The notes beneath the pieces were generated by a model that had not been told where the DNA came from, searched no databases, and saw only the letters and a list, made by a program, of their open reading frames with translations. Below, in pieces: positions 17,114-59,540 of a DNA stretch of 64,000 nucleotides. Within the stretch, counting starts at the first letter, position 1. The number at the start of each line of letters is the position of its first letter. This DNA comes from Isurus oxyrinchus (lineage: Eukaryota). A program made the translations under genes and the position numbers. The DNA is taken from contig JANJGN010000021.1 in the NCBI GenBank assembly GCA_026770705.1, positions 99,138,001 through 99,202,000 on the forward strand. Direction: 5' to 3'.

Positions 17114-18302
17114 GCCCTCAACCGTGTCCGGCCCATCTCCCGTGCATCCGCCCTCACGCCTCCTCCTCCCTCCCAGAAACATGATAGGGTCCCCCTTGTC
17201 CTCACTTATCACCCCACCAGCCTCCGCATTCAAAGGATCATCCTCCGCCATTTCCGCCAACTCCAGCATGATGCCACCACCAAACACATCTTCCCTTCAC
17301 CCCCCTTATTGGCATTCCGTAGGGATCGCTCCCTCCGGGACACCCTGGTCCACTCCTCCATCACCCCCTACTCCTCAACCCCCTCCTATGGCACCACCCC
17401 ATGCCCACACAAAAGATGTAACACCTGCCCCTTCACTTCCTCTCTCCTCACCGTCCAAGGGCCCAAACATTCCTTTCAAGTGAAGCAGCATTTCACTTGC
17501 ATTTCCCCCAACTTAGTCTACTGCATTCGTTGCTCCCAATGTGGTCTCCTCTACATTGGAGAGACCAAACATAAACTGGGCGACCGCTTTGCAGAACACC
17601 TGCGGTCTGTCCGCAAGAATGATCCAAACCTCCCTGTCGCTTGCCATTTTAACACTCCACCCTGCTCTCTTGCCCACATGTCTGTCCTTGGCTTGCTGCA
17701 TTGTTCCAGTGAAGCCCAACGCAAACTGGAGGAACAACACCTCATCTTCCGACTAGGCACCTTACAGCCTTTCGGTCTGAATATTGAGTTCAACAACTTT
17801 AGGTCGTGAGCTCCCTCCCCCATCCCCACCCCCTTTCTGTTTCCCCCTTTTCCCCCCCTTTTTTTCCCTATAAATTATATAGATTTTTCTTTTCCCACCT
17901 ATTTCCATTATTTTTAAATATTTTAAAATCTTTTATGCTCCCCCCACCCCCACTAGAGCTGTACCTTGAGTGCCCTACCATCCATTCTTAATTAGCACAT
18001 TCATTTAGATAATATCACCAACTTTTAACTTTAACACCTATGTGTTCTTTTGTACCATTGTCGCTGACATCTTTTGATGATCTGCTTCTATCACTGCTTG
18101 TCTGTCTACACAACCACCTCTCTCTCTCCCTATCTCTCCGCCCCACACACACACCTTAAACCAGCTTATATTTCAACTCTTTCTTGGACTCGAAATCAAG
18201 TTCTGTCGAAGGGTCATGAGGACTCGAAACGTCAACTCTTTTCTTCTCCGCCGATGCTGCCAGACCTGCTGAGTTTTTCCAGGTAATTCTGTTTTTGTTT
18301 TT
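17114..18302 (+). mobile_element. Penelope-like element, 5'-truncated (GIY-YIG endonuclease and pLTR)
   Basis: ORF 17309..17809 CNTC...NLVYCIRCSQCGLLYIGETK...RFAEH...EQHLIFRLGTLQPFGLN. Confidence 0.9.
18199..18237 (+). ncRNA. Minimal type I hammerhead ribozyme (variant core)
   Basis: AGTT-CTGTCGA-A-GGGTC atgag GACTC-GAAAC-GTC-AACT: stem I, core, stem II, palindromic ACGT stem III, GUC site. Confidence 0.75.
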
Positions 18303-18997
18303 AACACTACTGAGTATGTGTGTGTAGGGAGGAGGTCTCGATGTTCCTGCTCACACACTGACAGATTAACTGTTTGTACTTACACAGTAACTGCAGAAAG
18401 TGGAAATGTGCTTTTGCACTAACCTTATGTATGTTCCCCGTGACTGATCATTTAAAGATACTGGATTTGGCAACATTTTACAAACTATACCTTGTCTGGC
18501 ATGGCACTAGCCTGTGGAATCTGAAGGACACAGAATACAAACCCGTGATGGGTTCTCAGTTCATGGTGCACTCGGTATCAATATCACGAGCTCTGCATGT
18601 AGTTGATTGTATTAGTCTTGTTAGGATCGCCGGAGAGACTGTTTATTTTATAGAGAAATTCAAACATCCAGTTATTACCTGAAAGAAATTTTGTCACGAG
18701 GCTTCACGTTTTTAAATAACAAGCTTCACCGTATCGAAAAAAAATTAAACCAAGCAAGAACTGCTAACTTAACACAACAGTTTGTAAAGACTTAGAGTAT
18801 AAATTTAATTCCCCTTTTACTTCCTAGTTCCACCCAAGCATTCCCTTGTACATTGCAAGATCTTAAGGGTTCATTCACTTCTTCCTTTTGGAACAAAACC
18901 AAGTGTGCCACAGATATCTAGAATTCACTTTGATTTCTGCTCAGTGTTCCAGCTGTTCTCTGAAGTACAGATTTCATGAGGATCCTTCTTTTAACAT

Positions 18998-19482
18998 TGA
19001 ATATTGAATTCAACAACTTTAGGTCTTGAGCTCCCTTCTCCATCCCCACCCCCTTTCTGTTTCTTCTCCCTTCCTTTTTTTCCTCTGTTTTTCTCTTTTT
19101 TTTCTTTTCCAATAATTTATATAGATTTTTCTTTTCCCACCTATTTCCATTATTTTTAAATCTTTTATGCTCCCCCACCCCCACTAGAGCTATACCTTGA
19201 GTGCCCTACCATCCATTCTTAATGAGCACATTCGTTTAGATAATATCACCAACTTCAACATCTGTGTTCTTTTGTCTGTGACATCTTTTGATGATCTGCT
19301 CCTATCCTAAACCCCCCTCCACTTATCCCCGCCCCCCCACCTTAAACCAGCTTATATTTCCCTGTCCTTGTAAAGAAAGATCAGTTCTGATGAAGGGTCA
19401 TGAGGACTCGAAATGTCAACTCTTTTCTTCTCCACCGATGCTGCCAGACCAGCTGAGTTTTTCCAGGTAATTCCGTTTTTGT
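18998..19482 (+). mobile_element. Penelope-like 3' end/pLTR fragment
   Basis: Close copy of 17780-18300. Confidence 0.85.
19383..19421 (+). ncRNA. Minimal hammerhead ribozyme (canonical CUGAUGA core)
   Basis: AGTT-CTGATGA-A-GGGTC atgag GACTC-GAAAT-GTC-AACT. Confidence 0.75.
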
Positions 19483-20009
19483 TCCTTCTTTTAACTGTTG
19501 GCTAAGCAGCCCTCCAACTTTTCTTCAAAACCTCACAACTGTGGACCGCTCAGCTCAAGCTCAGGCTTCACAGCATTCCCAGTTGGTGATTTAAAATTCA
19601 GGAGCACTCCTGATTCTTAATGGCTTCTATGCACCTTGGCTTTGCACAGCCGCCAATTTCTTTCCCTCAGTCTGCTCCCACAGCTCCTGTCCACCTCTTG
19701 GCAGATATATCTCAACACCTCTCCTATTCATCAGCTCTTTAACACACATGGCAGGCTTGTCCAGCATACGGATGGCAGGCTGGGTTGCGGACCTGAAACC
19801 ATTGTATTTGGGCCCCGGAGCCATTGTTCAAAATGCCAGAAGGCAAGTGAAGTGAAGTTGAAGATTCTGCAAGGCTCTGCTCCTCCAACCACAGGCCGTT
19901 ACTCTCGTGTGTTCGTGGGAGAGAAACAATCTCTGATTGGATGAGCAGTGATCACCGGCAGCAGTAATTGTGCTGGGGAGAAAGAGGATTTCGTGGAGTG
20001 AAGAAGAGA

Positions 20010-20470
20010 GAGGTGCGGAGAGAGAAGGTGCCGCGGGAGGTGGGGAGAGAAGATGCCGCAGGGCGCGAAGAGATAAGGTGGTGTGGGGAGAGATGGTGCT
20101 GTGAGGAGAGATGGTGCCGTGAGGTGTGGGGAGAGAAGGTGCCGCGGGGAGAGAAGGTGCCGCGGGGAGAGTTGGTGCCGTGAGGTGTGGGGAGAGAAGG
20201 TGCCGCGGGGAGAGTAGGTGCCGTGAGGTGTGGGGAGCGAAGGTGCCGCGGTGGGGGTGGGGGGGGGGTGGGGGTGGGGGGGTGGGGGGGGGGGGGGGGG
20301 CGGCGGTGTAGAGAAGGTGCTGCCAGGCGCAGGGAGAGAAAGTGCCGCAAGGTGTGGGGAGAGAAGGATTCCCGGGGCGCGGGGAGAGAAGGTGCCACCA
20401 GGCGCGGGGAGAGAAGGTGCTGCGGGGAGAGAAGGTGCCACCAGGCGTGGGGAGAGAAGGTGCCGCAGGT
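20010..20470. repeat. G-rich minisatellite with poly-G tract
   Basis: Repeated GGGGAGAGAAGGTGCCGC units; G runs at 20250-20300. Confidence 0.9.
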
Positions 20471-21684
20471 ATCGGGCAGAGAGAGAGAGGCTGCTGGGCT
20501 GCGGAGCCTACTTTTGGCAGCCTGAACTCAAGTTCCAATTAACAGTATCCAATCTCAAAATTTTCCCTCTTTCCGGGAAGAAAATTCTCGAATCTTTAAA
20601 CTTTGTAACAAGTTTCTAACCCAAGACCGATCCAATTTAGGATTCACCATGATCACTTCAAATAGCCGAAATTCCAATCTACCCTGTTGAACATTAAAAC
20701 TACCTCGTTCTCACATGTGTAAAGTTGTATCCGGATTAAAATTCCCTCATGTATATCGAAATACCCTGGAATCGGGATTCTGGACAATAATTGTGGCTCC
20801 AAGTTCATACCTTGAAGATTTTACATCATTCATTCTGTCCTAAGATAGATCACAATCCCCGTTGTGAAATTTACTTTAACTCAAAAAAACTTATCCCAAT
20901 AAAAATCAGTTTCAGGAGAAATTTTAAAACATAATCATCCACACAAAATCTTTATCACACACACGTTGGGTGGAATTTTCCAGCCCCTCCCTCCACCCCC
21001 ACCACCCCCGAGGCAAGTTCCCCCACAGCGGGGTCCGGCGAGCCATTGAAATCCCCATTCACATCGGCGGGTCGGAAGATCCCACCGGCATGAGGGGACG
21101 GGAGAATTCCGGCCATTCTCTCCCTTGTGGAATCTTCCAACTCCATCTCCACCATATTCCTTTAACTTTATCCTCTCAAGCCATTGAATGTAGCACATAT
21201 TTTACAAAGGAACAAGAGAAATTAGCTTCAGCCCTGTGTTCGCAAAATTTTCTTTCTTCAAGGTACCTTTTGAAACACCTGGAAGTAGGAACTCAAGAAA
21301 AAGGTGAAATTTCACACTACAATATCCGAGCTTCAGATGAATCTTAAACCTAACAGTGTGGGAGAGGACCCCTATATCTCTTTCTCTCTCAGAACAAAGA
21401 ACACAGTCCAATACACATGTTATCATAACCTTTCTCAATTACACCGATTGAAAATATACAGCTTTTAAAACACATTAAACAACCAACTGATTTAAACCCA
21501 CAAACAGTAACAGACCACAAGGGGTTAAACTATGTTTAAATGACACAGACACTGCCTGGCAAATGCACAGAGAAACCAGAGATAAAAGACCCAGTCTCTC
21601 TCTCTCTCTCATTCAGCACAAGGCAACGGCACAGTTGGATTTAAAACACACAAACAGAAACTGAACCCATTCAAATACACACAA

Positions 21685-22377
21685 GGGGCTGAATTTCCCG
21701 CCCTGTTGGGGGGAAGTTGATGAGCGGACGCGTAATGATGCACTTCCGATCGATGCCCCCCATCAAAGGCGTAGCGCTATTTTACGTGGGTGGGCCAATT
21801 AAGGCCCGCCCAGCGTGATGTCTGCACAGAAGCGCTATATGGCGGGGGGATTCCTAAAATCGAGAGCGTGCACTTTCGCGCATGTGCACAAAAAAGCACA
21901 TTCATCTCCCTGAGGCTAAGTGCAGCCTCAGGGAGATTGGCTGTACATGTAAAAAAGATAAAAATAGAACAATAAAATTTCCCTTACATGTCCCTCATGT
22001 GACAATGTCACATGAGTTAGGACATGCCCATAATTTTTACACAATATTAAAAAAAATTAAAGCCTACATGAAACCTCATCCTGCCGGTGGATGAGATTTC
22101 ATGTTTTCTCTATTTGCCACCAGTGCTCCTGGACTGCCCACTAACCTTAAGGTTGGACGGGCAGGTCCTTTAATTATTTAAATGATCCTGTCAACGACCT
22201 CAATTGGCCATTGACAGGTCAGCGGGCCTGCAGCTGATTTTGCTGCGCCCCCCGCATTCCTGAAAATTTAAATTGGCTGTGGTGATGTCAGGAGTTCCCC
22301 CCTGATGTCACCGCATGTCATTTTACACGTTGGCGAGTGGGCCCTGCCCCCGTTCACCGACTCGTAAAATTCAGCCT
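21685..22377. mobile_element. Harbinger-type MITE
   Basis: TIR GGCTGAATTT / AAATTCAGCC; same family as 34736-35337. Confidence 0.75.
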
Positions 22378-22891
22378 TAGATTTCTTTTACCATTCACAC
22401 AGTGTTTTAATTACACTATGAGTCTATCAACTTAATTTCTTACTTTCCACTAAACATTTTCCATGACCCCAGAGTTTCACTTATATCTGAACCTTGTGCA
22501 AACAGCTGACAGAGGAGCACACTTCTACTCCTCTCAGCAGGGACCAGTACCAACCCATTTTCCCTTTGAGTTCCCAATTCCCTTGGCATGCTCTGCCTCT
22601 GACATTCTCTGGCTCCCGTAAAACCTTCCAACATCTCTCAGCTCAGTAAGCTGTTCTAACCAAATGCTCTGTTACCTTTTCAGCTCTTAGCTTTTTCTCT
22701 TCCATCCATTCTTGGATGAACAAGGCTTCTTCGAAAAGGACTCTGTCCCCCTCTTCCAGGCGCTCAGTGAGCAGTGTCTGGATCTGTTTATTAGAAAAAA
22801 GCAAAAAATTGCAGATGCTGCAAATTCAAAACAAAAGCAAAAATACCTGGAAAAACTCAGCAGGTCTGGCAGCATCTGTGGAAGGGAGTAC

Positions 22892-22930
22892 GGTTAATGT
22901 TTCGAGTCTGTATGACTCTTCAACAGAACT
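22892..22930 (-). ncRNA. Minimal hammerhead ribozyme motif (decayed)
   Basis: Reverse complement AGTT-CTGTTGA-A-GAGTC ataca GACTC-GAAAC-ATT-AACC. Confidence 0.55.
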
Positions 22931-25241
22931 AAGGAAAAATAGAAAAGGGGTGAAATATAAGCTGGTTTAAGGGGGGGTGGGACAAGAAGAATTGGATAGA
23001 GAGCCAGTGATAGGTGGAGATAACCAAAAGATGTCACAGACAAAAGGACAAAGAGGTGTTGAAGGTGGTGATATTATCTAAGGAATGTGCTAATTAAGGG
23101 TAGAAAGCAGGACGAGCAAGGTACAGATAGCCCTAGTGGGGGTGGGGTGGGGTGGGGTGAAGGGATCAAAAAAGACTAAAAGGTAGAGATAAAACAATGG
23201 ATGGAAATACATTTAAAAATAACGGAAATAGGTGGGAAAAGAAAAATCTATATAAATTATTGGAAAAAACAACAGGAGGGGGAAAATTGGAAAGGGGGTG
23301 CGGTTGGAGGAGGGAGTTCATGATCTAAAATTGTTGAACTCAATATTCAGTCCAGAAGGCTGTAAAGTGCCTAATCAGAAGATGAGGGCTGTTCCTCCAG
23401 TTTGCGTTGAGCTTCACTGGAACAATGCAGAAAGCCAAGGACAGACATGTGGGCATGAGAGGAGGGTGGAGTGTTGAAATGGCAAGCGACAAGGAGGTCT
23501 GGGTAATGCTTGCGGACAGACCGAAGGTGTTCTGCAAAGCGGTTACCCAGTCTGCGTTTGGTCTCTCCAATGTAGAGCAAACCACATTGGGAGCAACGAA
23601 TGCAGTAGACTAAGTTGAGGGAAGTGCAAGTGAAATGCTGCTTCACTTGAAATGTGTGTCTGGGCCCTTGAACGTGAGGAGAGGGGAAGTAAAGAGGCAG
23701 GTGTTGTATCTTCTGCGGTCGCATGGGAAGGTGTCGTGGGAGGGAGTTGAGGTGTAGGGGTGATGGAGGAGTGGACCAGGGTGTCATAGAGGGAAGGATC
23801 CCTATGGAATGCCGGTCAGGGGGGAGGGGATGAAGGGAAGATGTGTTTGGTGAGGGGATCATGCTGGAGTTGGTGGATATTGGTCTGACACTTCCCTTCC
23901 CTTCCTTGATCTCTCTGTCTCAATTTCTGGTGACAGACTGTCCACCAATATTCATTACAAGCCCACCGACTCCCACAGCTACCTCGACTACAGCTCCTCA
24001 CACCCCGCTTCCTGTAAGGACTCCATTCCATTCTCTCAGTTCCTTCGCCTCCGTCGCATCTGTTCTGATGATGCCACTTTCAAAAACAATTCCTCTGATG
24101 TGTCTTCCTTCTTCCTTATCTGAGGTTTTCCACCCACGGTGGTTGACAACCCTCAACCGTGTCCGGCCCATCTCCCACGCATCTGCCCTCACACCTTCTT
24201 CTCCCTCCCAGAAACATGATAGGGTCCCCCTTGTTCTCACTTATCACCCCACCAGCCTCCGCATTCAAAGGATCATCCTCTGCCATTTCCACCAACTCCA
24301 GCATGATGCCACCACCAAACACATCTTCCCTTCACCCCACCACCCCCCCCCAGCGGCATTCCGTAGGGATCATTCCGTCCGTGACAGCCTGGTCCACTCC
24401 TCCATCACTCCCTACACCTCAATCCCCTCCCACGACACCATTTCATGCAACCGCAGAAGGTGCAACACCTGCCCCTTTACTTCCCCTCTCCTCACCGTCC
24501 AAAGGCCCAGACACTCCTTTCAAGTGAAGCAGTATTTCACTTGCACTTCCCTCAACTTAGTCTACTGCATTCGTTGCTCCCCATGTGGTTTCCTCTACGT
24601 TAGAGGCACCAAACGCAGACTGTGTGACCGCTTTGCAGAACACCTTCGGTCTGTCCGCAAGCATGACCCAGACCTCCCTGTCACTTGCCATGTCAACACT
24701 CCACCCTGCTCTCTTGCCCACATGTCCATCCTTGGCTTGCTGCATTGTTCCAGTGTAGTTCAACGCAAACTGGAGGAACAATACCTCATCTTCCAACTAG
24801 GCACTTTACAGCTTTCTGGACTGAATATTGTGTTCAACAATTTTAGATCATGAACTCTCTCCTCCATTCCCACCCCATTTCCGATTTTCCCCCTCCTTAT
24901 TGTTTTTTCCAATAATTTATATAGATTTTTCTTTTCCCACCTATTTCCATTATTTTTAAATGTATTTCCATCCATTGTTTTATCTCTACCTTTTAGCCTT
25001 TTTTGATTCCTTCACCCCACCCCACCCCCACTAGGGCCACCAGTACCTTGCTCATCCTGCTTTCTACCCTTAATTAGCACATTCCTTTAGATTATATCAC
25101 CACCTTCAACACCTCTTTGTCCTTTTGTCTGTGACATTTTATGGTTATCTCCACCTATCACTGGCCCTCTATCCAGCTCTTCTTGTCCCAGCACCCTCCC
25201 CTTAAACCAGCTTATATTTCACTCCTCTTCTATTTTTCCTT

Positions 25242-25280
25242 AGTTCTGTTGAAGAGTCATGCGGACTCGAAACGTTAACT
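25242..25280 (+). ncRNA. Minimal hammerhead ribozyme motif
   Basis: AGTT-CTGTTGA-A-GAGTC atgcg GACTC-GAAAC-GTT-AACT. Confidence 0.7.
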
Positions 25281-25675
25281 GTGTTCCTTTCTGCAGATGC
25301 TGCCAGACCTGCTGAGTTTTGCCAGGTATTTTTGTTTTTGTTTATTAGACAACTTCTCTACTTCAAAAGGCACCTTGTCTCTGTTCTGTTTCTTTACCAA
25401 ACAGGAAGCTGCCTTCACACCCTCACACTAATTGAGCCTGTGCCTCGACCTCACGATATAATCTCTGATACTCCTTTCTATGTTCCTCTATTTTACAGAG
25501 CTGATAATTGCTCACAGTCTGTTCATGCCCATACTGTTGGGTGGCCCTTTCTGTCTTTAGTTCCTTAGGTTCCTTCATCAAGTGGTTAACTATCGCTTCG
25601 CTGCCTGAGGCCTGTTTTCTCAGGGCCTCTGCTTCTTGTCTGAGTTTAGCAATTCCACCCTGATCTTTACAGTTA

Positions 25676-28355
25676 AATCAAAAAGCTGCGGATGCTGGAA
25701 ATCCAAAACAAAAACAGAATTACCTGGAAAAACTCAGCAAGTCTGGCAGCATCGGCGGAGAAGAAAAGAGTTGACGTTTCGAGTCCTCATGACCCTTCAA
25801 CAGAACTGGGTGAATCCAAGGAGAGGGGTGCAATATAAGCTGGTTTAAGGTGGGCGGGGGGTAGGGGTAGGGGTTGGGTTGGGGGGAGAGAAATGGAAGG
25901 GGGGGGTGGTTGTAGGGACAAGCAGGCAGTGATAGGAGCAGATAATCAAAAGATGTCACAGACAAAAGAACAAAAGTACACAGGTGTTGAAGTTGGTGAT
26001 ATTATCTAAACGAATGTGCTAATTAAGAATGGATGGTAGGGCACTCAAGGTACAGCTCTAGTGGGGGTGGGGGGAGCATAAAAGATTTAAAAATAATGGA
26101 AATAGGTGGGAAAAGAAAAGTCTATATAAATTATTAGAAAAAAACAAAAGGAAGGGGGAAGAAACAGAAAGGGGGTGGGGATGGGGGAGGGAGATCAAAA
26201 CCTAAAGTTGTTGAATTCAATATTCAGTCTGGAAGGCTGTAAAGTGCCTAGTCGGAAGATGAGGTGTTGTTCCTCCAGTTTGCGTTGGGCTTCACTGGAA
26301 CAATGCAGCAAGCCAATGACAGACATGTGGGCAAGAGAGCAGGGTGGAGTGTTAAAATGGCAAGCGACAGGGAGGTTTGGGTCATTCTTGCGGACAGACC
26401 GCAGGTGTTCTGCAAAGCGGTCGCCCAGTTTACGTTTGGTCTCTCCAATGTAGAGGAGACCACATTGGGAGCAACGAATGCAGTAGACTAAGTTGGGGGA
26501 AATGCAAGTGAAATGCTGCTTCACTTGAAAGGAGTGTTTGGGCCCTTGGACGGTGAGGAGAGAGGAAGTGAAGGAGCAGGTGTTCCATCTTTTGCGTGGG
26601 CATGGGGAGGTGCCATAGGTGGAGGTTGAGGAGTAGGGGGAGATGGAGGAGTGGACCAGGGTGTCCTGGAGGGAATGATCCCTACGGAATGCCAATAGGG
26701 GTGGTGGGGTGGTGAAGGGAAGATGTGTTTGGTGGTGACATCATGCTGGAATTGGCGGAAATGGCGGAGGATGATCCTTTGAATGCGGAGGCTGGTGGAG
26801 TGATAAGTGAGGACAAGGGGGACCCTATCATGTTTCTGGGAGGGAGGAGAAGGCGTGAGGGCGGATGTGTGGGAGATGGGCCGGACACGGTTGAGAGCCC
26901 TGTCAACCACCGTGGGTGGAAAACCTCGGTTAGCGAAGAAGGAGGACATGTCAGAGGAACTGTTTTTGAAAGTAGCATCATCGGAACAGATGCGACGGAG
27001 GCGAAGGAACTGAGAGAATGGGATGGAGTCCTTACAGGAAGCGGGGTGTGAGGAGCTGTCGTCGAGGTAGCTGTGGGAGTCGGTGGGTTTGTAATGGATA
27101 TTGGTGGACAGTCAATCACCAGAGATTGAGACAGCGAGGTCAAGGAAGGGAAGGGAAGTGCAGGAGATGGACCACGTGAAAATGATGGAAGGGTGGAGAT
27201 TGGAAGCAAAATTAATAAATTTTTCCAAGTCCCGACGAGAGCATGAAGCAGCATCGATGAACCGGAGAAAGAGTTGTGGAAGGGGGCCGGAGTAGGACTG
27301 AAACAAGGAATGTTCCACATACCCCACAAAGAGACAGGCATAGCTGGGGCCCATGCGGGTACCCATAGCCACACCTTTTACTTGGAGGAAGTGAGAGGAG
27401 TTGAAGGAGAAATTGTTCAATGTGAGAATACATTCAGCCAGACAGAGGAGATGGTGGATGGGGATTGTTCGGGCCTCTGTTCGAGGAAGAAGCTAAGGGC
27501 CCTCAGACCATCCTGGTGGGGGATGGAGGTGTAGAGGGATTGGACGTCCATGGTGAAGAGGAAGTGGTGGGGGCTAGGGAACTGGAAATTGTTGATGTGA
27601 CGTAAGGTGTCAGAGGAATCACGGATGTAGGTGGGAAGTGACTGGACAAGGGGAGAGAGAAGGGAGTCAAGATAACGAGAAATGAGTTCCGTGGGGCAGG
27701 AGCAAGCTGACACGATTGGTCTACCGGGACAGTTCTGTTTGTGTATTTTGGGTAGGAGGTAGAAGCGGGCCGTCCGAGGTTGGGCGACTATCAGGTTGGA
27801 AGTTGTGGGAGGATTCCCAGAGGAGATGAGGTCAGTGACAGTCCCGGAAACAATGGCTTGATGTTCAGTGGTGGGGTCATGGTCCAGGGAGAGGTAGGAG
27901 GAAGTGTCTGTGAGTTGACGCTCAGCCTCCGCGAGGTAGAGGTCAGTGCGCCAGACAACAATGGCACCACCCTTGTCAGCGGGTTTGATGACAATGTCAG
28001 GGTTGGACCTGAGAGAATGGAGTGCAATAAGTTCAGAGAGAGACAGGTTAGAATGGGTGAGAGGAGCAGAGAAATTGAAATGACTAATGTCGCGCTGACA
28101 GTTCTCAGTGAAAAGATCAACAGAAGGTAAGAATCCAGAGGGCAGTGTCCAGGTGGAGGGAGAATATTGGAGGTGGGTAAAAGGATCCATTGAACAGGGA
28201 GAGGACTCCTGCCCAAAGAAGTGAGCCCAGAGACGAAGACGGTGGAAGAAGAGTTCAGCATCATGCCGAGCCCAAAATTCATTGAGATGAGGACGTAAGG
28301 GTATGAAACTAGGTCCTTTGCTAAGCACTGAACGTTCAGCGTCGGAGAGGGGAAG
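25676..28355 (-). mobile_element. Penelope-like element (RT + GIY-YIG + pLTR), frameshifted
   Basis: ORF 27417..28328 IKPADKGGAIVVW...YLLPKIHK...RPIVS...TMDVQSLYTSI; GVAMGTRMGPSYA; GIY-YIG ORF 26195..26695. Confidence 0.92.
25769..25807 (-). ncRNA. Minimal hammerhead ribozyme motif
   Basis: Reverse complement AGTT-CTGTTGA-A-GGGTC atgag GACTC-GAAAC-GTC-AACT. Confidence 0.72.
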
Positions 28356-28674
28356 TTCCTGTTCCTTGTGCCATTGTATTGGGTAATCATGTTAGTCAAT
28401 GGGAGGAAATGGTAAATCCCTGGTACCATTGTTCCATGATAACAATCAGTCAATCTCCAAACCCTTTTCTTGAGCCACTGTCTTTTAGCAAATGTCTGAA
28501 TTAACCCCTTGTTTCCCAGCCCACTGCTGTTGGCTGTAGCTTAGTTTCTGTGTTGTGGTAAAAGACATGAGGTCAAAACATTTCAGTAGGTTTGGGTTTT
28601 ATACTCCATAAATTTCCCAGGTGGAGGGGATTCCGCATGTACAATGACCATATAAATGTGATCAATTGCTATGA

Positions 28675-38732: not shown

Positions 38733-39960
38733 CTAGCTGAAGGTTCTTTGGATTAAATTGTCCCGGGTGTCCCTGTGTCCTTGGTGCAGTAGCGGGTCAT
38801 CGTTCTGCCCCTCATCATTGCCCTGTGCTTCCTCATCCTCTGAGACACTGCTGGATTCATCATGTGCAGCCTCATCCAGGGCGTCAAGGTCTTCATCGTC
38901 AACTGCATCCCCCCTTTCCAGCACAAGATTGTGCAGAGCGCAGCATGCTACCACTATCAGGGGGACGCGATCTGGAGGGTACTGGAGTGCGCCCCCTGAG
39001 GGGTCCAGGTAACAGAAGCGCATCTTGAGAAGACCGATGGTTCTCTCCACCACAGTCCTTGTGGTGCCCTGGCTCCTATTGTAACGCTGCTCAGCTTCTG
39101 TTCTTGGATGGCGGAGAGGCGTCATGAGCCACCTTCTGAGGGGATAACCCTTGTCACCCAGCAGCCATCCATTCAGCTGAACCAGAGCACTGAAGAGCTC
39201 CAGCACTTGGGAGTGTCTGAGGACGTAGGTATCATGGGAGCTGCCTGGGTACCTTGCACAGACTTGTAAAATCTGCATCCTGTGGTCACACACTATCTGC
39301 ACATTCATGGAGTTCCTGTTGATGAAGGAACCGGGCTCACCCGCTGGCGCCTTGATGGCCACATGTGTACAGTCTATAGCACCCTGGACGCGGGGGAAGC
39401 CAGCAATGGCCGCAAAGCCTCTGGCTCACTCTATCTGACTTGCCTGGTCACAGTGGAAGTGGATGAAGATCGATACCCGTCTGAACAGAGCGTCTGTAAC
39501 CTGCTTGACACAAGTGTGGACAGCTGATTGGGAGACACCACAAAGATCACCCACCGAGCCCTGGAAGGAGCCTGAGGCATAGAAGTAGAGGGCAACTATG
39601 AGCTTCAGAGCCGTTGGCATGGGGTGTCCACCCACACTGTTAGGGGAAATCTCAGGGCCAATCATCTAATAGATATAGTTGACTGTCTCCCTTGAGAGAT
39701 GGAGCCTCCTTTGGCACTGCACCTCAGTCATATTGAGATAGCTGCTTCACCGCCTGTATACCCTGGCAGCAGGAGAGTGGCGTCTTCTATGGCCCCTTCC
39801 ACCTTGGACAACCTCTTGGTCCTACGCCCCTTGTGCCTGCGCCTGGCCTCCCAAAGCTGGCTCCCCTGGAGGCTGATTGTCCAGTCCTGGCCTCCACCTG
39901 ATTCTATCCCTCCCTTCCTCCTCAGGGGAGCTGTCTCCAGTGGAGAGGTCAGAACCCATA
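38733..39960 (-). pseudogene. Harbinger DDE transposase (HARBI1-like), disrupted
   Basis: ALYFYASGSFQ...GVSQSAVH; GAIDCTH; SMNVQIVCD; YPGSSHD; LLGDKGYP; [12 protein letters not shown]; stops at 39426-39428 and ~39666. Confidence 0.9.
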
Positions 39961-40411: not shown

Positions 40412-41590
40412 ATATGTTGATGCTCAGAGGGACTTGGGAGTACTCGCACAAGGAACACAGAAAGCCAGTAACAATAATTAAAGCAGAAAATGCTGGAAAC
40501 AGTCAGCAGGTCAGGCATCGTCTGTGGAGAGAAACTGTCTTAACGTTTCAGAACTGATGAAAGATCATCGACCAGAATCGAAAGCCTGTTTCTCTCTCCA
40601 CAGATGCTGCCTGACCTGCTGAGTATTTCAGCGTTTTCTGTTTCTTTTTCAGATTTCCAGCATCATCAGGATTTTGCCTTTTTGTTACAGAAAGTTAGCG
40701 TGCAGTTTCAGCAAGCTATTAGAGTAGCAAATGGCACATAAGTCTTTATTATGAGAATAAGGAAACATTGCTGCAATTGTGCAGGGTTTCGGTGAGATCC
40801 AGCTGGATGCTGTGTGCAGTTTTGGTCTCTATATCTCTTTTATGTCTTGGGTCTATGAGTTCACTAGTCGAGTAAACTCGAATTGCACGTCCTCATATAC
40901 CCTTGTTAGTTGATGCTCACTATTAATAATGGAGAGAGACTGACATAAGAACAATCTGTGATTGTTTATTGCAACAGAGGGCAGAATGCTAAATCCTCGC
41001 ATGCTCCCGCAACCACCTCCAGCTCTAGACTTACAGTGAACCAGGAGCCCACACTGTACAGTGATTGTTCAGCACTGTCACATCGTTAGTCCACTTGCAT
41101 TCTCATTAAGGTACATGGCACTCCACTTTACCACAATCTCAGAAAGAACGAATTTGCATTGGAGGCGATACAGCGAAGACTTGCTCCTGGGATGAGAAGG
41201 TCATCCAATGACGAGAGGCTGAGTAAATTGGGTCTGTACTCTCTGAAGTTTAGAAGAATGAGAGATGATCCCATTGAAACATTCTGAACGGGTAGAGTAG
41301 ACTCTGAAAGGTTTTCTCTGCTGGCTGGGGAATCTAGAACATGGAGGCACAAAGGATGATCAGTCCAGAGTGAGCTGGGGAGAAATTTCTACACTCACAG
41401 GGCTGGAATTCTCTACCCCAGAGGGTTGTGGATGCCCCATCGTTGAGTATATTTAAGGCTGGGATAGATTGTGGTCTCTCAGTAAATGAAGGGATTATGG
41501 GGACCAGGCAGGAAAATGGAGTACAGGCAAAAGATCAGCCATGCTCACACAGAATGACACCACATGTTCGAGGAGCTATATGGCCTATTG
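40412..41590 (+). mobile_element. CR1-type LINE 3' part, continuing 34600-34735 and 35338-35375
   Basis: QRDLGV motif at 40425; ERLSKLGLYSL...RRMR at ~41215; interrupted by nested elements. Confidence 0.7.
40465..40686. mobile_element. Fold-back mini element derived from a Penelope-like terminus
   Basis: Inverted arms CAGAAAATGCTG...GTCAGGCA..TCTGTGGAGAGA / TCTCTCCACAGATGCTGCCTGACC...TTTTCTG; central CTGATGA; TSD ACAGAAAG at 40457-40464 and 40687-40694. Confidence 0.7.
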
Positions 41591-44862: not shown

Positions 44863-45204
44863 GTAAGTGACTGAGGGACAGATAGTTGGGAATGAAATAG
44901 GAGGGATTGAAAGTTGTAGAATTACATTCTCCTGGGAATTCTCTGGAAGGAGATTCTCGATCCCACAGAGAAACAATCGGAAAGATGTGACTGGTCTTTG
45001 AAGTTGTTTTTCCAGATTTCACTCGGTTCCTCTGATAATCCGACAGCAACAGGGAAATTATGGACCCTTGTTCTGTTGGGTTTGTGAATTATTTTACAAT
45101 ATTGATGAACATTAATTGCACCAAGTATTGAAATAATTATCAGAGACTTTGTTATTTTCACGACGTTGACTAGGTCAGTCTAGAATTGGGTTCAGAATAG
45201 AGAC

Positions 45205-45797
45205 ATCTCCACCCCCTCCCTCTCCACCCCCTCCCTCTCCACTCCCTCCCTCTCCACTCCCTCCCTCTCCACTCCCTCCCTCTCCACCCTCTCCCCCTCC
45301 ACCCCCTCCCTCTCCACTCCTTCCCTCTCCACCCCCTCCCTCTCCACCCCCTCCCTCTCCACTCCTTCCCTCTCCACCCCCTCCCTCTCCACTCCTTCCC
45401 TCTCCACTACCTCCCTCTCCACCCCCTCCCACTCCACTTCCTCCCTCTCCACTCCCACCCTCTCCACTCCCACCCTCTCCACTCCTGCCTTCTCCACTCC
45501 CTCCCTCTCCACTCCCTCCCTCCCCACTCCCTTCTTCCCCACTCACTCCCTCTCCACTCCCTCTTTCTCCACTCCCTCCCTCTCCACTCTCTCCCTCTCC
45601 ACTCCCTCCTTCCCCACTCCCGCCCTCTCCACTCCCTCCCTCTCCACTCCACTCCCTCTCCACTCCCTCCCTCTCCACTCCCTCCCTCTCCACTCCACTC
45701 CCTCTCTACTCCCTCCCTCTCCACTACCTCCCTCTCCACTCCCTCCCTCTCCACTCTCTCCTTCTCCACTCCCTCCCTCTCCACTCCCTCCTCTCCA
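45205..45797. repeat. 15-bp pyrimidine minisatellite
   Basis: (CTCCACTCCCTCCCT)n, ~39 units. Confidence 0.95.
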
Positions 45798-49706: not shown

Positions 49707-49744
49707 TTTCTGATGTCACTGTTCCAGAACGATCCAAGACCTAA
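49707..49744 (+). CDS. Candidate gene B terminal cytoplasmic exon (option 1)
   Basis: Strong polypyrimidine acceptor ttttctcag; phase 1 gives ISDVTVPERSKT*. Confidence 0.4.
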
Positions 49745-49782
49745 AGGGGAGCCGATGATGTAATGGTATTGTTGCAGCACTA

Positions 49783-49893
49783 ACAAAAACAGAATTACCT
49801 GGAAAAACTCAGCAGGTCTGGCAGCATCGGCGGAGAAGAAAAGAGTTGACGTTTCGAGTCCTCATGACCCTTCGACAGAACTTGATTAGAGAT
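49783..49893 (-). mobile_element. 111-bp PLE terminus carrying a hammerhead (49844-49882), inserted in a SINE
   Basis: TSD TTGCAGCACTA at 49772-49782 and 49894-49904; reverse complement CTGTCGA...GAAACGTC. Confidence 0.8.
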
Positions 49894-49974
49894 TTGCAGC
49901 ACTAGTTCTCCAAACACCCAGGGTAATTCTCTAGGGCCCTGAATTCAAATCCCACCATAACAGATAACCATAAC

Positions 49975-50160
49975 GCTGTCTCACCCTCTCAGACACTGTT
50001 AAATCCTGTCAGGCTAATTTCACTGCCCTTCTGACCGTGTCTCACCCTCACAGACACTGTTAAAACCTGTCAGACTAATTTCACTGCCCTCCTGACCCTG
50101 TCTCACCCTCCCAGACACTGTTAAAACCTGTCAGACTAATTTCACTGCCCTCCTGACCCT
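49975..50160. repeat. ~62-bp tandem repeat x3
   Basis: TCTCACCCTC.CAGACACTGTTAAA.CCTGTCAG.CTAATTTCACTGCCCT repeated. Confidence 0.9.
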
Positions 50161-50221
50161 GAACTGATTGCCCTGTTTCTGTCCATTCCTTACCTCGTGG
50201 GTTTACTGTGTTCCACTGCAG

Positions 50222-50810
50222 GACGTTCCCAGAGCCTCGTTGATGAATAACTGGATTAGCCTGTTCTAGTGTGAACACGGACATCATCGTCCAAGCTTCC
50301 ATATCACAGCAGACACACATAATCACAGCTCATTGTTTACACTGAGTGCTTTGATGAGGGAGATCTATTTATCCTGGGAATCTGCTTCCACAGATTGAAC
50401 AGTGGATCCTGGATCCACCAGGTTCGGATCCTGATTGTTCAAGTGAGACTTTCTCAAGTAGCGTTTCCATTCAGTATCCACATTGTGACGGCTCTCACAG
50501 TCGAAGGGAACTTCAGGGATGATTTTCCTTCACACTCGCTTATCTTCAACAACTTGTTCAGGTTGAGTGATTAACCTGAACAGAGTTAATGTCGTGAGGG
50601 AACTGAGAGAAACACATTTTATATTGATAAAAGCTGATCTATTTTGCACTTTCTGTTATGTCAGATTTATGCTGTTATATAATGTACATTTGTAAATTTT
50701 ACAACTAAAAACTATTTACAGAGATAAAACACATTTATATCTTCAAAGTTTCACTACAAATGCTGATAATTGTGGTTTGTTGTCAATAAATAATTGTCAG
50801 TAGTTGACTT
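50222..50810 (+). other. Candidate gene B terminal exon / 3'UTR with polyA signal (option 2)
   Basis: ttccactgcag acceptor; phase 1 gives RRSQSLVDE*; AU-rich tract, AATAAA at 50785-50790. Confidence 0.4.
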
Positions 50811-50974
50811 GTCTAAATTCTTCTTTACTGATTTCATAAGGAAGGTTTAATTCATTCACTCAGCAGCTTGTGGGTCTTGGAATGGCCAGTTGTTGAGGTT
50901 CAGTTTAATGTGAATGGAGTGAGTTCATACCAAATGTCAGCATCATTCACTGCTTTCCATCAGCATTTATTCAC

Positions 50975-51274
50975 TTGTTTACAGACAAGAAGATGACAGA
51001 GAAAAAGACAGACGAGAGGAAGACGTGTCATAACTTTAGTGAATCAAACTTCAACACATTTGCCAGTGAGGTGGAGCTGAAGTGTCTCCAGCATCTCAGT
51101 AATGAGAAGTGTGGGTTACCGAGTAAAGTTAGTGTCTTGGTGTGGAAGGAGGTGACAGAGAGTGTGACTGCTAACTGCACTGTTCCATGGTCTGCACAGC
51201 AATGTCGAAACGAATGGAATGAGTTCACACAATCTGACAGGGTTTGTAGAGTTCTTGCAGTTTTTATCATTTAA
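50975..51274 (+). mobile_element. Myb/SANT-like domain ORF, probably Harbinger-derived
   Basis: NFSESNFNTFASEVE...VWKEVTESVTA...WSAQQCRNEWNEF. Confidence 0.55.
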
Positions 51275-51398
51275 ATGTCCATTGAAGATTTAATGAATAA
51301 TGAAGTGAAGATCCTGTTAATGGGTTTATGGGTTGGTCAGGGGTAGATGATGTCAAGTGGTGGTAAAATGCAGTTGCCATTGGAGACACACTCACTGA

Positions 51399-53800: not shown

Positions 53801-54274
53801 CCCATCACCACTCTGGTTTCACTTTCGCTTTAGCCAGCACGGTGCTGCTACAGTTTTTCCTTTGCTCTTCTGTCCTTTCCCCTCCCATTTCCTTTCCTCC
53901 ATCACTGTCAACCCTCTGGCATCACTTTCCTCCTCTCCTCCGTGACGTACCAGCCACAACCCTTTTCCTTCGGGAATGTCCAGGTGAACGTGCATGTTCC
54001 CTTCCTTCCCAAAAATCCTACCCCCATCCACATTCACCCCCCTGACCTCCTCCTTCCCACCCCCAGGGTCAGTGTTTGCCTCTGGATCCCTACCAACCTC
54101 CCTCGCTTTTCCCCTTCTACACAACCGTCGAACCCTCACCCACCCACCCTACTGCCTCACTCTGGCCTCGGTCACTCTCACCATTCCCTCATATCACACC
54201 TACCCTCAGTTCACTGCCCAGGAGGCCATCACGGACTTATCAGAGTTCTCTCTTGCACATTCACCTGGACATTC

Positions 54275-54545
54275 CCCTCTCCGAACTTCATCCCCTCTCT
54301 GCTCTCCTTCCTCTTCCTGCACTCCATCCCCCCTCTGAACTTCATCCCCTCTCTGCTCTCCTTCCTCTCCCCGCACTCCATCCCCCCTCTGAACTTCATC
54401 CCCTCTCTGCTCTCCTTCCTCTCCCTGCACTCCATTCCCCCTCCGAACTCCATCCTCTCTCTGCTCTCCTTCCTCTCCCCACACTCCATTCCCCCTCCGA
54501 ACTCCATCCCCTCTCTGTGCTCCTTCCTCTCCCCGCACTCCTTCA
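54275..54545. repeat. 54-bp tandem repeat x5
   Basis: CCCCTCTGAACTTCATCCCCTCTCTGCTCTCCTTCCTCTCCCCGCACTCCAT units. Confidence 0.92.
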
Positions 54546-55447
54546 CTTCTCTCGACTCCTCCCTCACTCTGAACTCCCTCCCTTTCACCTTCCACCTCCT
54601 TTATACCGGCCTCCCCAGTTGCTGTCTTCTCTGTTACACCTCATCACCCCCGTAACCCCTCCCCCTCCCAAACTCCCCCCCCCCCCCCCACCGACATCTT
54701 CATTTCCCCCCCTCCCAACTTCACCTCCCGACACCTTCATTCACCTCCATAACTTCACCCCCCCAACACCTCTTCCTCTCCCAGTCAATCCTAGACCTTC
54801 CGGTCCATCTCCTTCTCCCAAACACAGCTGAACCTGCCTTTCCACCCCCTCGACCATCATCTGTTGTGATCAGACCGTCAACAGTGACTTTCCACCTTCT
54901 GTGAGCTGCTTCACGGTGGATCCATGTCCATGAGAATCCACCCAGCTTCCCATGGACGTTCCTCCAGGATCCTGCTGAAATATGACTCATTAACATAAAT
55001 GTTATGAAATGTTTTAGACCAATTTTCTGAGGTTTACATTGTTCAACACTGATTACCTCGAAGGTCTTGCAATGGGGATTTGCTGTTAAAATAAAATGTC
55101 ACTTGTTTCACTCTCCATCTACACTGATCTTTGGTCTGATTTCCTGGGGGAGGGAGAGGGATTTTCTCCCTCCCAATGTCCAAATGTATCAGCCCCCAGC
55201 TGCTCTCCAGCTGCCCCGACAGCTGCAGTCGGAGTTTCCTCAGCTTCTCCGTGAGGCCTGGATCCAGTCACATCCATGTTTTGAAGTCAGATTAATCTTG
55301 GAATCTTTTAAATTACACCAGAGACCTTATGAGAAAAATTATTTCAGCTTTCAAGATCCTTTGAAAATCAGGACTTTTGAAAAAAATGAAACGTGCAGAA
55401 AATGTAAATGTGTTTCATTCCCAACAATCTGTCCCTCAGTCACTTAC

Positions 55448-55480
55448 TCTGAACTGTTGTGTAGTTCACACTTGGTGAAT
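55448..55480 (-). pseudogene. Gene C cytoplasmic exon
   Basis: DSPSVNYTTVQ with intact ag/gtaagt; flanks mirror 44480-44900. Confidence 0.85.
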
Positions 55481-55977
55481 CTGCAGAAGCAAAATAAATG
55501 TCAGTTAGAATGGGGAATAATCCATTATCAGAGAGTGAGAACAGAACAAGTATGAGGGAATGGAGATTGTGTAAGAAATACTCATTCCCATACTCCCCTC
55601 CATCCTTACACTTTATGGAGATCCTGTCGATCTGTTTCATTCCATCGATATTCAGTAGGTGAGGATGTGAGTGTGTGTGGTGGATTTAATGATCAATATT
55701 AGACCTGGTCTGGGCCAGTCACACAAAGGGAGGTCGGACAGGGAACAAGACGTGTTTATACGTGTGTATCTGTGTGTGGGAATTAAATCAGTTCCATTCA
55801 ACACAGTGTCCTGTTCTCCCAGTACTGGAGATTCCCCCACACTCACTCTGTCCCTTCAGTTCCACATTCCCCTCCCTCTCACTCTCCCCTCTCAGTGTCC
55901 TGTACTCCCAGTACTGGAGATTCCCCCACACTCACTCTGTCCCCTCAGTTTTACATTCCCCTCTCTTGGATTCTTAC

Positions 55978-56094
55978 CTCTCCGTTGCCTTTTCCAAATG
56001 AACATTCCAATTATCCCTAATATAAAAATTCCAGCTATCACTAATCCTGTTACAATTCCAAGAATTAGAAGATCTCCACTGTTTTCCAGAATTT
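55978..56094 (-). pseudogene. Gene C TM exon
   Basis: EILENSGDLLILGIVTGLVIAGIFILGIIGMFIWKRQRR; 117 bp as in B. Confidence 0.88.
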
Positions 56095-56173
56095 CTGAAA
56101 CACATTTGAATAATATCAGGATTGTCTCTCTGTTCCCAAATCCATTCCGAGGTCTGACCGGGGACATTGGCAG

Positions 56174-56353
56174 GATGAGTCTCATCGTGGTTGGGTCGAA
56201 CCCCTGAGGATAGTGTCTCAGACATTACCTCTCCATTCCTTAGCCAGCTCACCTCGATGTCTACAGGATAAAACCCAGTAACCAGGCAGGAGAGAGTGAG
56301 CAGCTTGTACTGACTATTGGGGTCACTTCTGGAGATGAACACTTCAGGCTGAA
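56174..56353 (-). pseudogene. Gene C alpha3 exon, 3'-truncated
   Basis: VQPEVF...SCLVTGFYP...PNHDETH then joins intron 4 sequence; second Cys and donor lost. Confidence 0.92.
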
Positions 56354-56461
56354 CTGTAATGGGAAAGGGTGAAAACACAAACAGTAGACAGACACTGAAT
56401 GGAATGGGAGAACGCTTTCATAGACCAGTGAAGTTAGATCAGAACATGGGATTAAAATGAT

Positions 56462-56737
56462 CTTTTCTTTCAAAATGCTCCTTTCCAGCTTCAAAATATC
56501 TTTTTAAATTCTGAAAACCTATTTCTTCTATATTCCATTTCCAATATTTGTTCCAGGATTCATTGGAATTCCATTTCTCCTTAGTCTTCACTTCAATGTG
56601 ATTGGTTGTGACCCATCTCATTCTGCCTGGCTCTAAACTAATATAGTCCTTTCCATCAAATCCAAACCGCATCGTTCTCTTTATGGAGCCTTCTTCAGTG
56701 ATCTCAACAATTTTTATCCATTGGAAAATGTGGATTC
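56462..56737 (-). pseudogene. Gene C alpha2 exon (no Cys; donor GT deleted)
   Basis: GIHIFQWIKIVEITEEGSIKRTMRFGFDGKDYISL...TKEKWN...YWKWNIEEIGFQNLKRYFEAGKEHFERK; AAAG|atcatt instead of AAAG|gtattt. Confidence 0.92.
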
Positions 56738-56787
56738 CTGTCAGAGAGCAAATGATGATGAATAATCAGTGGACTGGAGGATTGTAA

Positions 56788-58955
56788 TAAAAACAAAAAA
56801 CTGTGGATGCTGGAAATCCAAAACAAATACAGAATTACTGGAAAAACTCAGCAGGTCTGGCAGCATCGGCGGAGAAAACAAAGTTGACGTTTCGAGTCCT
56901 CATGACCCTTCAACAGAACTAAGTAAAAATAGGAGAGGAGTGAAATATAAGCTGGTTTAAGGTGGGGGGGGTGGGGCGGTGGTGGTGGGGGGAGAAGGGG
57001 GGTGGAGGTGGTTGTAGGGACAAGCAAGCAGTGATAGGAGCAGATAACCAAAAGAAGTCACAGACAAAAGAACAAAGAGGTGTTGAAGGTGGTGATATTA
57101 TCTAAAAGAATGTGCTAATTAAGAATGGATGGCTGGACACGCAAGGTACAGATAGCTCTAGGGAGGGTGGGGTGAAATAAGACTAAAAGGGCATAAAAGG
57201 TATAGATTTAAAAATAATGGAAATACGTGGGAAAAGAAAAATCTATATAAATTATTGGAAAAAAACAAAAGGAAGGGGGAAACAGAAAGGGGGTGGGGAT
57301 GGAGGAGGGAGTTCAAGCTCTAAAGTTATTGAACTCAATATTCAGACCAGAAGGCTGTAAAGTGTTTAGTCAGAAGATGAGGTGCTGTTCCTCCAGTTTG
57401 CGTTGAGCTTCACTGGAACAATGCAACAAGCCAAGGACAGACATGTGGGCAAGAGAGCAGGGTGGAGTGTTAAAATGGCAAGCAACAAGGAGGTCTGGGT
57501 CATTCTTGCGGACAGACTGAAGGTGTTCTGCAAAGTGTCACCCAGTCTGCATTTGGTCTCTCCAATGTAGAGGAAACCGCATTGGGAGCAATGAATACAG
57601 TAGACTAAGTTGGGGGAAATGCAAGTGAAATGCTGCTTCACTTGAAAGGAGTGTTTGGGCCCTTGGACGGTGGGGAGAGAGGAAGTGAAGGGGCAGGTGT
57701 TACATATTTTGCGTATGCATGGGGAGGTGCCGTAGATGGGAGTTGAGGAGTAGGAGGTGATGTAAGATTGGACCAGGGTGTCATGGAGGAAACAATCCCT
57801 ACGGAAAGCTACCGGGGGGTGAAGGGAAGATATGTTTGGTGGTGGCATCATGCTGGAGTTGGCGGAAATGGTGGAGGATGATCCTTTGAATGCGGAGGCT
57901 GGTGGAGTGATAAGTGAGGACAAGGGGGACCCTATCATGGTTCTGGGAGGGAGGAGAAGGCATGAGGGCGGATGTGTGGGAGATGGGCCGGACACGGTTG
58001 AGAGCCCTGTCAACCACCGTGGGTGGAAAACCTCAGTTAATGAAGAAGAAGGACATGTCAGAGGAACTGTTTTTGAAGGTAGCATCATCAGAACAGATGC
58101 GACGGAGGCGAAGGAACTGAGAGAATGGGATGGAGTCCTTACAGGAAGCGGGGTGTGAGGAGCTGTAGTTGAGGTAGCTGTGGGAGTCGGTGGGTTTGTA
58201 ATGGATACTGGTGGACAGTCTTATCACCAGAAATTAAGACAGAGAGGTCAAGGAAAAGAAGGGAAGTGTCAGAGATGGACCACGTGAAAATGATGGAGGG
58301 GTGGAGATTGGAAGCAAAATTAATAAATTTTTCCAGGTCCCGACAAGAGCATGAAGCTGCACCGAAGTAATCATCGATGTACCGGAGAAAGAGTTGTGGG
58401 AGGGGGCCGGAGTAGGACTGGAACAAGGAATGTTCCACATACCCCATAAAGAGACAGGCATAGCTGGGGCCCATGCGGGTACCCATAGCCACACCTTTTA
58501 TTTGGAGGAAGTGAGAGGAGTTAAAGGAGAAATTGTTCAGTGTGAGAACAAGTTCAGCCAGACGGAGGAGAGTAGTGGTGGATGGGGATTGTTCGGGCCT
58601 CTGTTCGAGGAAGAAGCTAAGGGCCCTCAGACCATCCTGGTGGGGGATGGAGGTGTAGAGGGATTGGACGTCCATGGTGAAGAGGAAGCGGTTGGGGCCA
58701 GGGAACTGGAAATTGTTGATGTGATGTAAGGTGTCAGAGGAATCACGGATGTAGGTGGGAAGGGACTGGACAAGGGGAGAGAGAAGGGAGTCAAGATAAC
58801 GAGAAATGAGTTCCGCGGGGCAGGAGCAAGCTGAGACGATCGGTCTGCTGGGACAGTCCTGTTTGTGGATTTTGGGCAGGAGATAGAAGCGGGCCGTCCG
58901 AGGTTGGGCGACTATCAGGTCGGAAGCTGTGGGAGGAACATCTCCAGACTGGAGG
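56788..58955 (-). mobile_element. Penelope-like element (RT + GIY-YIG + pLTR with hammerhead at 56882-56920)
   Basis: ORF 58139..59056 MDVQSLYTSI...GVAMG...RYIDD; VYCIHCSQCGFLYIGET; reverse complement CTGTTGA...GAAACGTC. Confidence 0.93.
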
Positions 58956-59159
58956 ATTGTAATTGTTACATTGAGATTAAAGCAAAATACTGCGGATGGT
59001 GGAAATCTGAAATAGAAACAGAAAATGCTGGAAATACTCAGCAGCTCAGGCAGCATCTATGCAGAAGGAAACGGAGTTTACATTCCGGTTGGTGACCTGT
59101 CATCAGTTCTGAAACATTGGACGAATTCATCGCGAGGAGCCAGGTCCTGCTTGTGGAGA

Positions 59160-59540
59160 ACAAAACAAAAATAAAAATACCTGGAAAAACTCAGCAGGTC
59201 TGGCAGCATCTGCAGTGAGGAACACAGTTAACATTTTGAGTCCATATGACTCTTCAACAGAACTAAGTAAAAATAGAAAAGAAGTGAAATATAAGCTGGT
59301 TTAAGGGGGTGGGGGTGGGGAGGTGGGGGTGGGACAGGTAGAGCAGGATAGAGGGCCAGTGATAGGTGGAGATAACCAAAAGATGTCATAGACAAAAGGA
59401 CAAAGAGGTGTTGAAGGTGGTGATATTATTTAAGAAATGTGCTAATAAGTGACATTAAGAGTAGAAAGCAGGACGAGCAAGGTACAGATAGCCCTAGTGG
59501 GGGTGGGGTGGGGGAATCGAAATAGGCTAAAAGGTAGACA
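59160..59540 (-). mobile_element. PLE terminal fragment with decayed hammerhead (59226-59264)
   Basis: Copy of 22830-23190; GAAA mutated to AAAA. Confidence 0.8.

Follow-up and report, generated by a model that had tools for sequence, protein, structure and literature searches.

A 64,000-nucleotide stretch of the Isurus oxyrinchus genome (contig JANJGN010000021.1, positions 99,138,001 to 99,202,000; hereafter the window) contains eight 39-nt hammerhead ribozyme motifs, each near the 3′ end of a 5′-truncated Penelope-like element (PLE). Seven of them have U in place of the nearly invariant core A at position 6 (A6), the purine of the hammerhead U-turn. The source elements of this family have U6, the youngest and intact ones included, and the change likely weakens self-cutting strongly. 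The reading that we favour, with a probability of about 60%, is an attenuated ribozyme in a PLE lineage that would have spread from uncut RNA, without efficient cleavage. The ~119,000 copies made after A6 changed to U, together with the likely weakened cleavage, suggest that efficient self-cutting was not needed for spreading.

The motif and its core

The motifs had the layout of a minimal type I hammerhead, with stems I and II, an extra base after A9, a G10.1-C11.1 pair and palindromic positions 15.1–16.1; the same layout was seen in 24 motifs of related PLEs. Together with the reverse transcriptase (RT) or GIY-YIG matches upstream, it supported the original prediction of minimal type I hammerheads at the ends of PLEs. 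When compared with the core C3 U4 G5 A6 N7 G8 A9 / G12 A13 A14 A15.1 / U16.1 H17, seven of the eight window copies departed at A6, and the subfamily consensuses kept all other positions. With Rfam covariance models, nothing in the window, not even the A6 copy, matched a hammerhead at E ≤ 1.

All eight predicted 39-nt copies were present at their positions and strands, five with CUGUUGA, two with CUGUCGA and one (at 19383) with A6. Stem II was GGGUC/GACUC or GAGUC/GACUC in every copy, around a variable 5-base loop, as had been claimed. The 3′ half given for the family, GAAAC-GUH-AACU, was intact in five copies but altered in those at 19383, 59226 and 22892, most of the changes being at CpG sites. 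The copy at 19383 had been called the only canonical one; it is indeed the only copy with A6 but carries C15.2U and so is not fully canonical. Its nearest kin among the fetched loci (L073, with the same rare upstream sequence) has U6, and its A6 is therefore probably a back-change from U6.

U6 in the genome

Exact matches to a 19-base pattern, which favour young copies, were counted over the genome. The pattern gave 134,273 matches against three for a reversed control, indicating that the motifs are not chance occurrences. Position 6 was U in 118,936 of these (88.6%), A in 11,405 and G or C in 3,932, and the proposal that the family had spread with U6 thus held at genome scale. The opposite case, U6 confined to old, decayed copies, was not what was found, since the youngest and intact copies have U6. 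In an unselected sample of 1.064 Mb, chosen regardless of the motif, 61 motifs comprised 49 with U, 11 with A and one with C. Searches requiring CUGANGA would miss about nine tenths of the family's motifs. Contigs from sequencing runs contained the motif in three organisms (coded A, B and C), and the listed matches showed no second letter at position 6, a weak indication as such contigs break at variants.

A single identical U6C7 39-mer, with three intact CpGs, occurred in 52,044 copies. Decay of old copies as the origin of U6 was ruled out by these identical 39-mers, an intact U6 tandem copy (see below), the tree and the unselected sample. U6U7 as mere CpG decay of U6C7 holds for some young copies but fails for the GAGUC subfamily: its first 100 matches listed included no U6C7.

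On the background of the 52,044-copy 39-mer, 1,569 copies had another base at position 6, about 6% of them A and 89% C (first 100 matches listed, by eye). C6U7 copies numbered ~1,240 against ~144 expected from a control T-to-C site (shares by eye from the first 100 matches listed for each), and C6U7 was also seen in seven of the first 100 G5-mutant matches listed. Variants of A13 (384) were near the T-to-C control (334). Variants of G5 (1,138) were above the controls and scattered over all backgrounds; this excess is probably due to a G mutation bias, and minor source elements may lie behind the G5 variants.

Subfamilies and direction of the change

When the motif was left out of tree building, the subfamilies fell into a ladder that began with A6, went on to U6U7-GAGUC and then U6-GGGUC, and ended with U6C7, the youngest (midpoint root; good support for only 8 of 61 inner branches). 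Divergence of copies at the end of the open reading frame (ORF) was about 5%, 5%, 3% (C6 group) and 1% along the ladder. Three caveats apply to it: A6U7 and early U6U7 copies overlap in age (end branches 0.04–0.09 and 0.02–0.08), two long A6 copies are no more diverged in the ORF end, and A6 requires three changes on the tree. From the counts, a C6 stage probably stood between U6U7 and U6C7; on the tree the C6 copies are not one clade, with five changes for five rows. Over 217 codons of the ORF end, 22 of the codon differences that arose across the U6 era were synonymous and 15 were non-synonymous (p 9e-6 to 9e-4), indicating purifying selection, and the lineage therefore stayed autonomous.

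The polarity from A6 to U6 also rests on outgroups. A first metagenome scan found no relative. In 80 metagenome loci of related PLEs, searched with position 6 left free, 24 sense-strand motifs were found in 21 loci, 23 with A6 and one with U6, as against three motifs in the antisense control. All 56 motifs in Fig. S3 of an earlier survey have A6, though that search demanded A6 (PMC4209133).

A minimal hammerhead motif with U3-A8, U6 and C7 lies ~280 bases after the ORF of a distant PLE whose cysteine linker is of the same type (L355:2793-2826, metagenome contig JAAUXV010067574.1). This would be a second, independent U6, in a single frameshifted copy where decay is possible.

Ends of the copies

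Ends were mapped for 78 copies in the 1.064-Mb sample, a few of them from sister families. With positions counted from the first base of the motif (+1), 3′ ends lay near +101–104 in 42 copies and near +128–140 in 30. Among the 73 visible 5′ ends, 19 were at −10 to +6, nine at +7 to +32, one at +33 to +37 and three past +37; further upstream, 11 were at −100 to −11, 11 at −1000 to −101 and 19 beyond. The peak at the first base of the motif reached 1.1 ends per base, compared with 0.12 just upstream, and we infer that it is the RNA 5′ end, transcription starting at about +1.

Copies of cut RNA are expected to start at +36. As 19 of the 73 5′ ends lay at the motif start and one at the predicted cut, the copied templates were likely uncut; this applies to both the A6 and the U6 states and says nothing on cleavage of either in vivo. 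Genome-wide, 1,684 young copies had junctions in +30 to +40, and cut-site copies make up at most ~390–510 young copies, less than 1% of the 52,044 identical full motifs. The two A6-rich families, with 609 and 85 matches, gave none and at most three clean +36 starts, respectively (by eye), the 609-match set being mostly a 2-base deletion variant.

One stub in the window (16042-16139, Table 1) is a possible copy of cut RNA, a single case. Head-to-head pairs of copies joined at or near the first base of the motif were frequent (G000:C1, e.g. 361250-361287, 501933-501973 and 1427237-1427277). In the older subfamilies, the motif start carries a pyrimidine tract with AG, resembling a 3′ splice site (window 25212-25243, 22929-22960 and 59263-59294), and the D. 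virilis Penelope has an intron that ends at the corresponding place (PMC4209133). No GT..AG joint was seen among the contig joints listed, which is uninformative either way.

Conservation and predicted folding of the motif

The youngest consensus differs from the earliest one with U6 at five of 39 positions: N7, a stem II pair (A-U, later G-U), two bases of the loop, and H17 (U, later C). In the 62 bases downstream of the motif, six changed. At this downstream rate the conservation of the positions required in a hammerhead was not significant (p 0.13), the downstream bases being about as conserved as the motif. This, the pile-up of 5′ ends at the first base of the motif as expected of a transcription start, and the internal promoter with an initiator (Inr) and a downstream promoter element (DPE) described for Penelope (PMC2377424) would fit a dead ribozyme. 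Its 39 bases would then have been kept by an overlapping transcription start and a protein-binding or reverse-transcription signal at the RNA 5′ end, or would simply reflect how seldom changes became fixed in one source lineage. We consider such a ribozyme improbable, as the fixed changes obey hammerhead rules.

Predicted pairing of stem II fell along the ladder. In RNA from +1 to +60, it was 0.44–0.51 in the GAGUC subfamilies and 0.01–0.13 in the later GGGUC subfamilies; from +1 to +49, it was 0.86–0.93 and 0.04–0.36, respectively. It was lower for all in longer RNA. The active dimer was not the predicted minimum for any subfamily. Locking of the monomer in an inactive hairpin by U6 alone was considered and set aside as not discriminating, since A6U7 also has a competing helix.

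Upstream of the motif, the youngest subfamily acquired in steps a segment that nearly repeats the 3′ arm of stem II, together with GAA, in place of the older pyrimidine tract (window 18184-18198; L058:4545-4559). This segment is predicted to pair weakly with G5-U6-C7, with a mean of 0.46 in 22 copies; upstream pairing in 15 A6U7 copies was 0.39.

Published effects of changes at position 6

A natural A6C change, for which loss of one or two hydrogen bonds is expected, was reported with a kobs of <0.1 per min (PMC3088659). In another hammerhead, the rate with A6C was 3.55e-6 per min in 0.3 mM Mg2+, against 0.3 per min without the change, although 0.18 was retained in Mn2+ (PMC7151607). Activity was low when the CUGA turn carried one or two mutations, the C3-G8 swap excepted (PMC9901934). 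Minimal PLE hammerheads are described as slow even with A6 (PMC4209133). The hammerhead of an anole PLE cleaved only when protein was added, and its catalytic mutants left insertion in vitro unaffected (PMC11167929); Naiad PLEs, which have no hammerhead, proliferate (PMC8557442).

Literature searches found no PLE hammerhead with U6 or A6U. Lunse et al. 2017, reportedly a study of small PLE hammerhead variants, may contain such variants.

A probable attenuated ribozyme and its alternatives

The uncut templates, the drift to C6, the weaker predicted stem II and the published position-6 mutants tend to favour an attenuated ribozyme over a fully working new core. As the other core bases stayed fixed, a residual function is possible. 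In the course of events that we propose, the source lineage fixed the change from A6 to U, and self-cleavage would have dropped to a low residual level. The RNA would start at about +1, so that the motif forms its first 39 bases. Reverse transcription would start internally at two 3′ sites, as in the anole element, and run through the uncleaved motif. The element kept spreading, probably because it was copied from uncut RNA. The rest of the core was probably kept by weak residual cleavage (assisted by a dimer or by protein), by a promoter or protein-binding function that overlaps it, or by both.

Several results weigh against an attenuated ribozyme. All five changes of the U6 era fell at positions where a hammerhead tolerates them (p 0.017 for random placement, post hoc), and none of 20 required positions changed, compared with 75 of 328 in the pseudo-long terminal repeat (pseudo-LTR) (p 0.006, post hoc), a pattern that looks like continued selection on the ribozyme. 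A small excess of starts was seen at +36 in young U6 copies, comprising 17 of the first 100 junction matches listed (by eye; four via a joint with the stem I complement) and eight of 33 junctions across 30 loci, at least three of which are explained by microhomology. The A6 subfamilies had no +36 excess either, and uncut templates thus do not separate U6 from A6. Nor did folding of the bare 39-mer dimer separate them, the active form lying 8.3 (A6U7) and 8.1 kcal/mol (U6C7) above the dimer minimum. In the hammerhead mutagenesis literature examined, no measured A6U rate was found, and attenuation is argued by analogy.

Part of this evidence would also suit a working U6 core, with useful cleavage in a dimer or with the element protein bound, in a lineage still selected for cleavage. 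Beyond the slight +36 excess and the unchanged stem I, stem III and other core positions, A13 variants stayed at background level, the anole hammerhead depends on protein (PMC11167929), and the distant PLE L355 combines U6C7 with a U3-A8 pair. That the core still works in this way seems unlikely, because published position-6 changes strongly impaired cleavage, position 6 went to C as well as to U, and predicted stem II weakens in the later subfamilies; the U6 of L355, in one frameshifted copy, may itself be decay.

Attenuation might even have been favoured. If A6 to U was an advantageous down-tuning, capped full-length RNA would have been spared self-cutting and the lineage would have taken over the genome, a proposal that we hold to be doubtful. 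Were it true, the series A6, U6U7, weaker stem II, C6 and U6C7 with the upstream pairing segment would be a fossil record of a ribozyme being switched off, and would directly support PLE hammerheads as brakes or passengers, not processing tools. The family is in any case a natural experiment on the need for PLE hammerhead cleavage, as a single lineage offers dated subfamilies in which position 6 is A, U or probably C, a tandem source copy that is intact and more than 100,000 insertions after the change. It may show either that the element can do without cleavage in vivo, or that U6 is acceptable to a hammerhead core when a dimer forms or protein is present.

Comparison with known systems

Judged from its sequence, the family descends from the known minimal PLE hammerhead and would work like it, but departs from it at A6. 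As described by Cervera and de la Pena (2014, PMC4209133), the motifs in animal PLE pseudo-LTRs share with it the type I layout, a short stem I, the extra base between A9 and G10.1, the G10.1-C11.1 pair, the palindromic ACGU without loop 3, a site after the ORF and single copies spread over the genome. The natural core variant in that account is U3-A8, whereas here U6 is the majority and youngest state; the same account gives 4,000 and 9,000 motifs in coelacanth and Xenopus, compared with the ~119,000 U6 copies here.

The anole Poseidon element PAc (Frangieh et al. 2024, PMC11167929) also has two 3′ ends ~30–35 bases apart downstream of the motif. Its two internal RT starts and "tail" match the 3′ ends found here, and uncut RNA serves as its template. 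In the description given there, the PAc ORF starts inside the hammerhead, whereas the first Met here is ~180 bases after the motif start; moreover, PAc is a Poseidon element and the protein here has a linker of the Neptune/Nematis type (CX4CX2C).

The hammerhead of phage Bcep176, a natural A6C (Perreault 2011, PMC3088659; Naghdi 2020, PMC7151607), likewise has a pyrimidine at position 6, and a C6 stage is probable here too. It is reported as a single phage motif with measured activity, low in Mg2+ and good in Mn2+, whereas the present one has U in a dimer-requiring minimal motif of very high copy number. Naiad and Chlamys PLEs (Craig et al. 2021, PMC8557442) reach high copy number without a canonical hammerhead, and those authors noted that hammerheads may be dispensable or parasitic. 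As described there, these elements have no motif and an N-terminal endonuclease, unlike the C-terminal GIY-YIG and the core change in a dated subfamily series found here.

The element carrying the motif

The intact tandem copy (L058), elsewhere in the genome, is a triple tandem spaced by 3,353 and 3,340 bp. Each of its three motifs is U6C7, and it contains a single open frame of 926 codons. The frame matched RVT_1 (E 7e-8, at 415-579) and GIY-YIG (E 9e-4, at 829-863, below the Pfam cut-off). A single ORF with RT and, at its C-terminus, a GIY-YIG endonuclease (EN), the pseudo-LTR tandem of L058, an inverted 5′-truncated partner (22798-25343 pair) and the 30–40-bp tail given by the two 3′ ends place the element among EN+ PLEs. 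The linker in the L058 translation fits CX2-5CxxC between RT and EN, a mark of Neptune/Nematis PLEs (PMC8557442), and suggests that the element belongs with these, an assignment by linker motif. The named relatives with top identity were from Chiloscyllium punctatum (69% and 65%).

In the window copies that were long enough, GIY-YIG or RT matches were found upstream of the motif on the same strand, and the GIY-YIG match was above the Pfam cut-off in two. As listed in Table 1, a ninth copy was added to those of the original prediction.

Table 1. PLE copies and hammerhead motifs in the window
Feature	Position	Strand	Remarks
5′-truncated PLE	17114..18301	+	GIY-YIG end, pseudo-LTR, hammerhead motif; 3′ end at ~+103
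5′-truncated PLE end	18998..19483	+	13-bp target-site duplication
5′-truncated PLE	22798..23880	-	Head-to-head with copy 23884-25343 (inverted insertion)
5′-truncated PLE, partner of inverted pair	23884..25343	+	
Longest PLE copy of the window, broken frame	25671..28358	-	GIY-YIG match 26198-26740; 3′ end with tail
~105-bp stub, motif 5′ edge to first 3′ end	49782..49887	-	11-bp target-site duplication
5′-truncated PLE with RT domain	56790..58948	-	RVT_1 E 7e-8; 17-bp target-site duplication
Short 5′-truncated PLE end	59162..59508	-	
Ninth copy, stub	16042..16139	-	Start at the predicted cut or no more than two bases away (+34 to +36); 13-14-bp target-site duplication
Hammerhead motif, youngest subfamily	18199..18237	+	U6 C7, stem II GGGUC/GACUC, GUC triplet; identical to the 52,044-copy 39-mer
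Hammerhead motif with A6 (probable back-change) and C15.2U	19383..19421	+	
Hammerhead motif, older U6U7 GAGUC subfamily, G16.2A and a stem I change	22892..22930	-	
Hammerhead motif, older U6U7 GAGUC subfamily, GUU triplet	25242..25280	+	
Hammerhead motif, U6U7 GGGUC	25769..25807	-	
Hammerhead motif, U6C7	49844..49882	-	
Hammerhead motif, U6U7 GGGUC	56882..56920	-	
Hammerhead motif, U6U7 GAGUC, G12A and C15.2U	59226..59264	-	

Ends of a sister PLE family (72–79% alike) with decayed motif regions were found at 40476-40676 and 58979-59087 of the window; the one near 40548 retains CUGAUGA.

Other features of the window

An exon-like stretch resembling the alpha domain of major histocompatibility complex (MHC) class I lies at 16416-16946 (+; PF00129, E 6e-7). 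Beside it is a 194-bp inverted repeat (16216-16409) whose partner is 4 kb upstream (11941-12134). A transposase fragment at 38736-39425 (-) matched DDE_Tnp_4 (E 4e-36), a family which we take to be of the PIF/Harbinger type. Tandem arrays at 14800-15054 (33-base unit), 19989-20504 (18/25), 45117-45772 (15) and 54221-54635 (18) account for several long open frames in the window.

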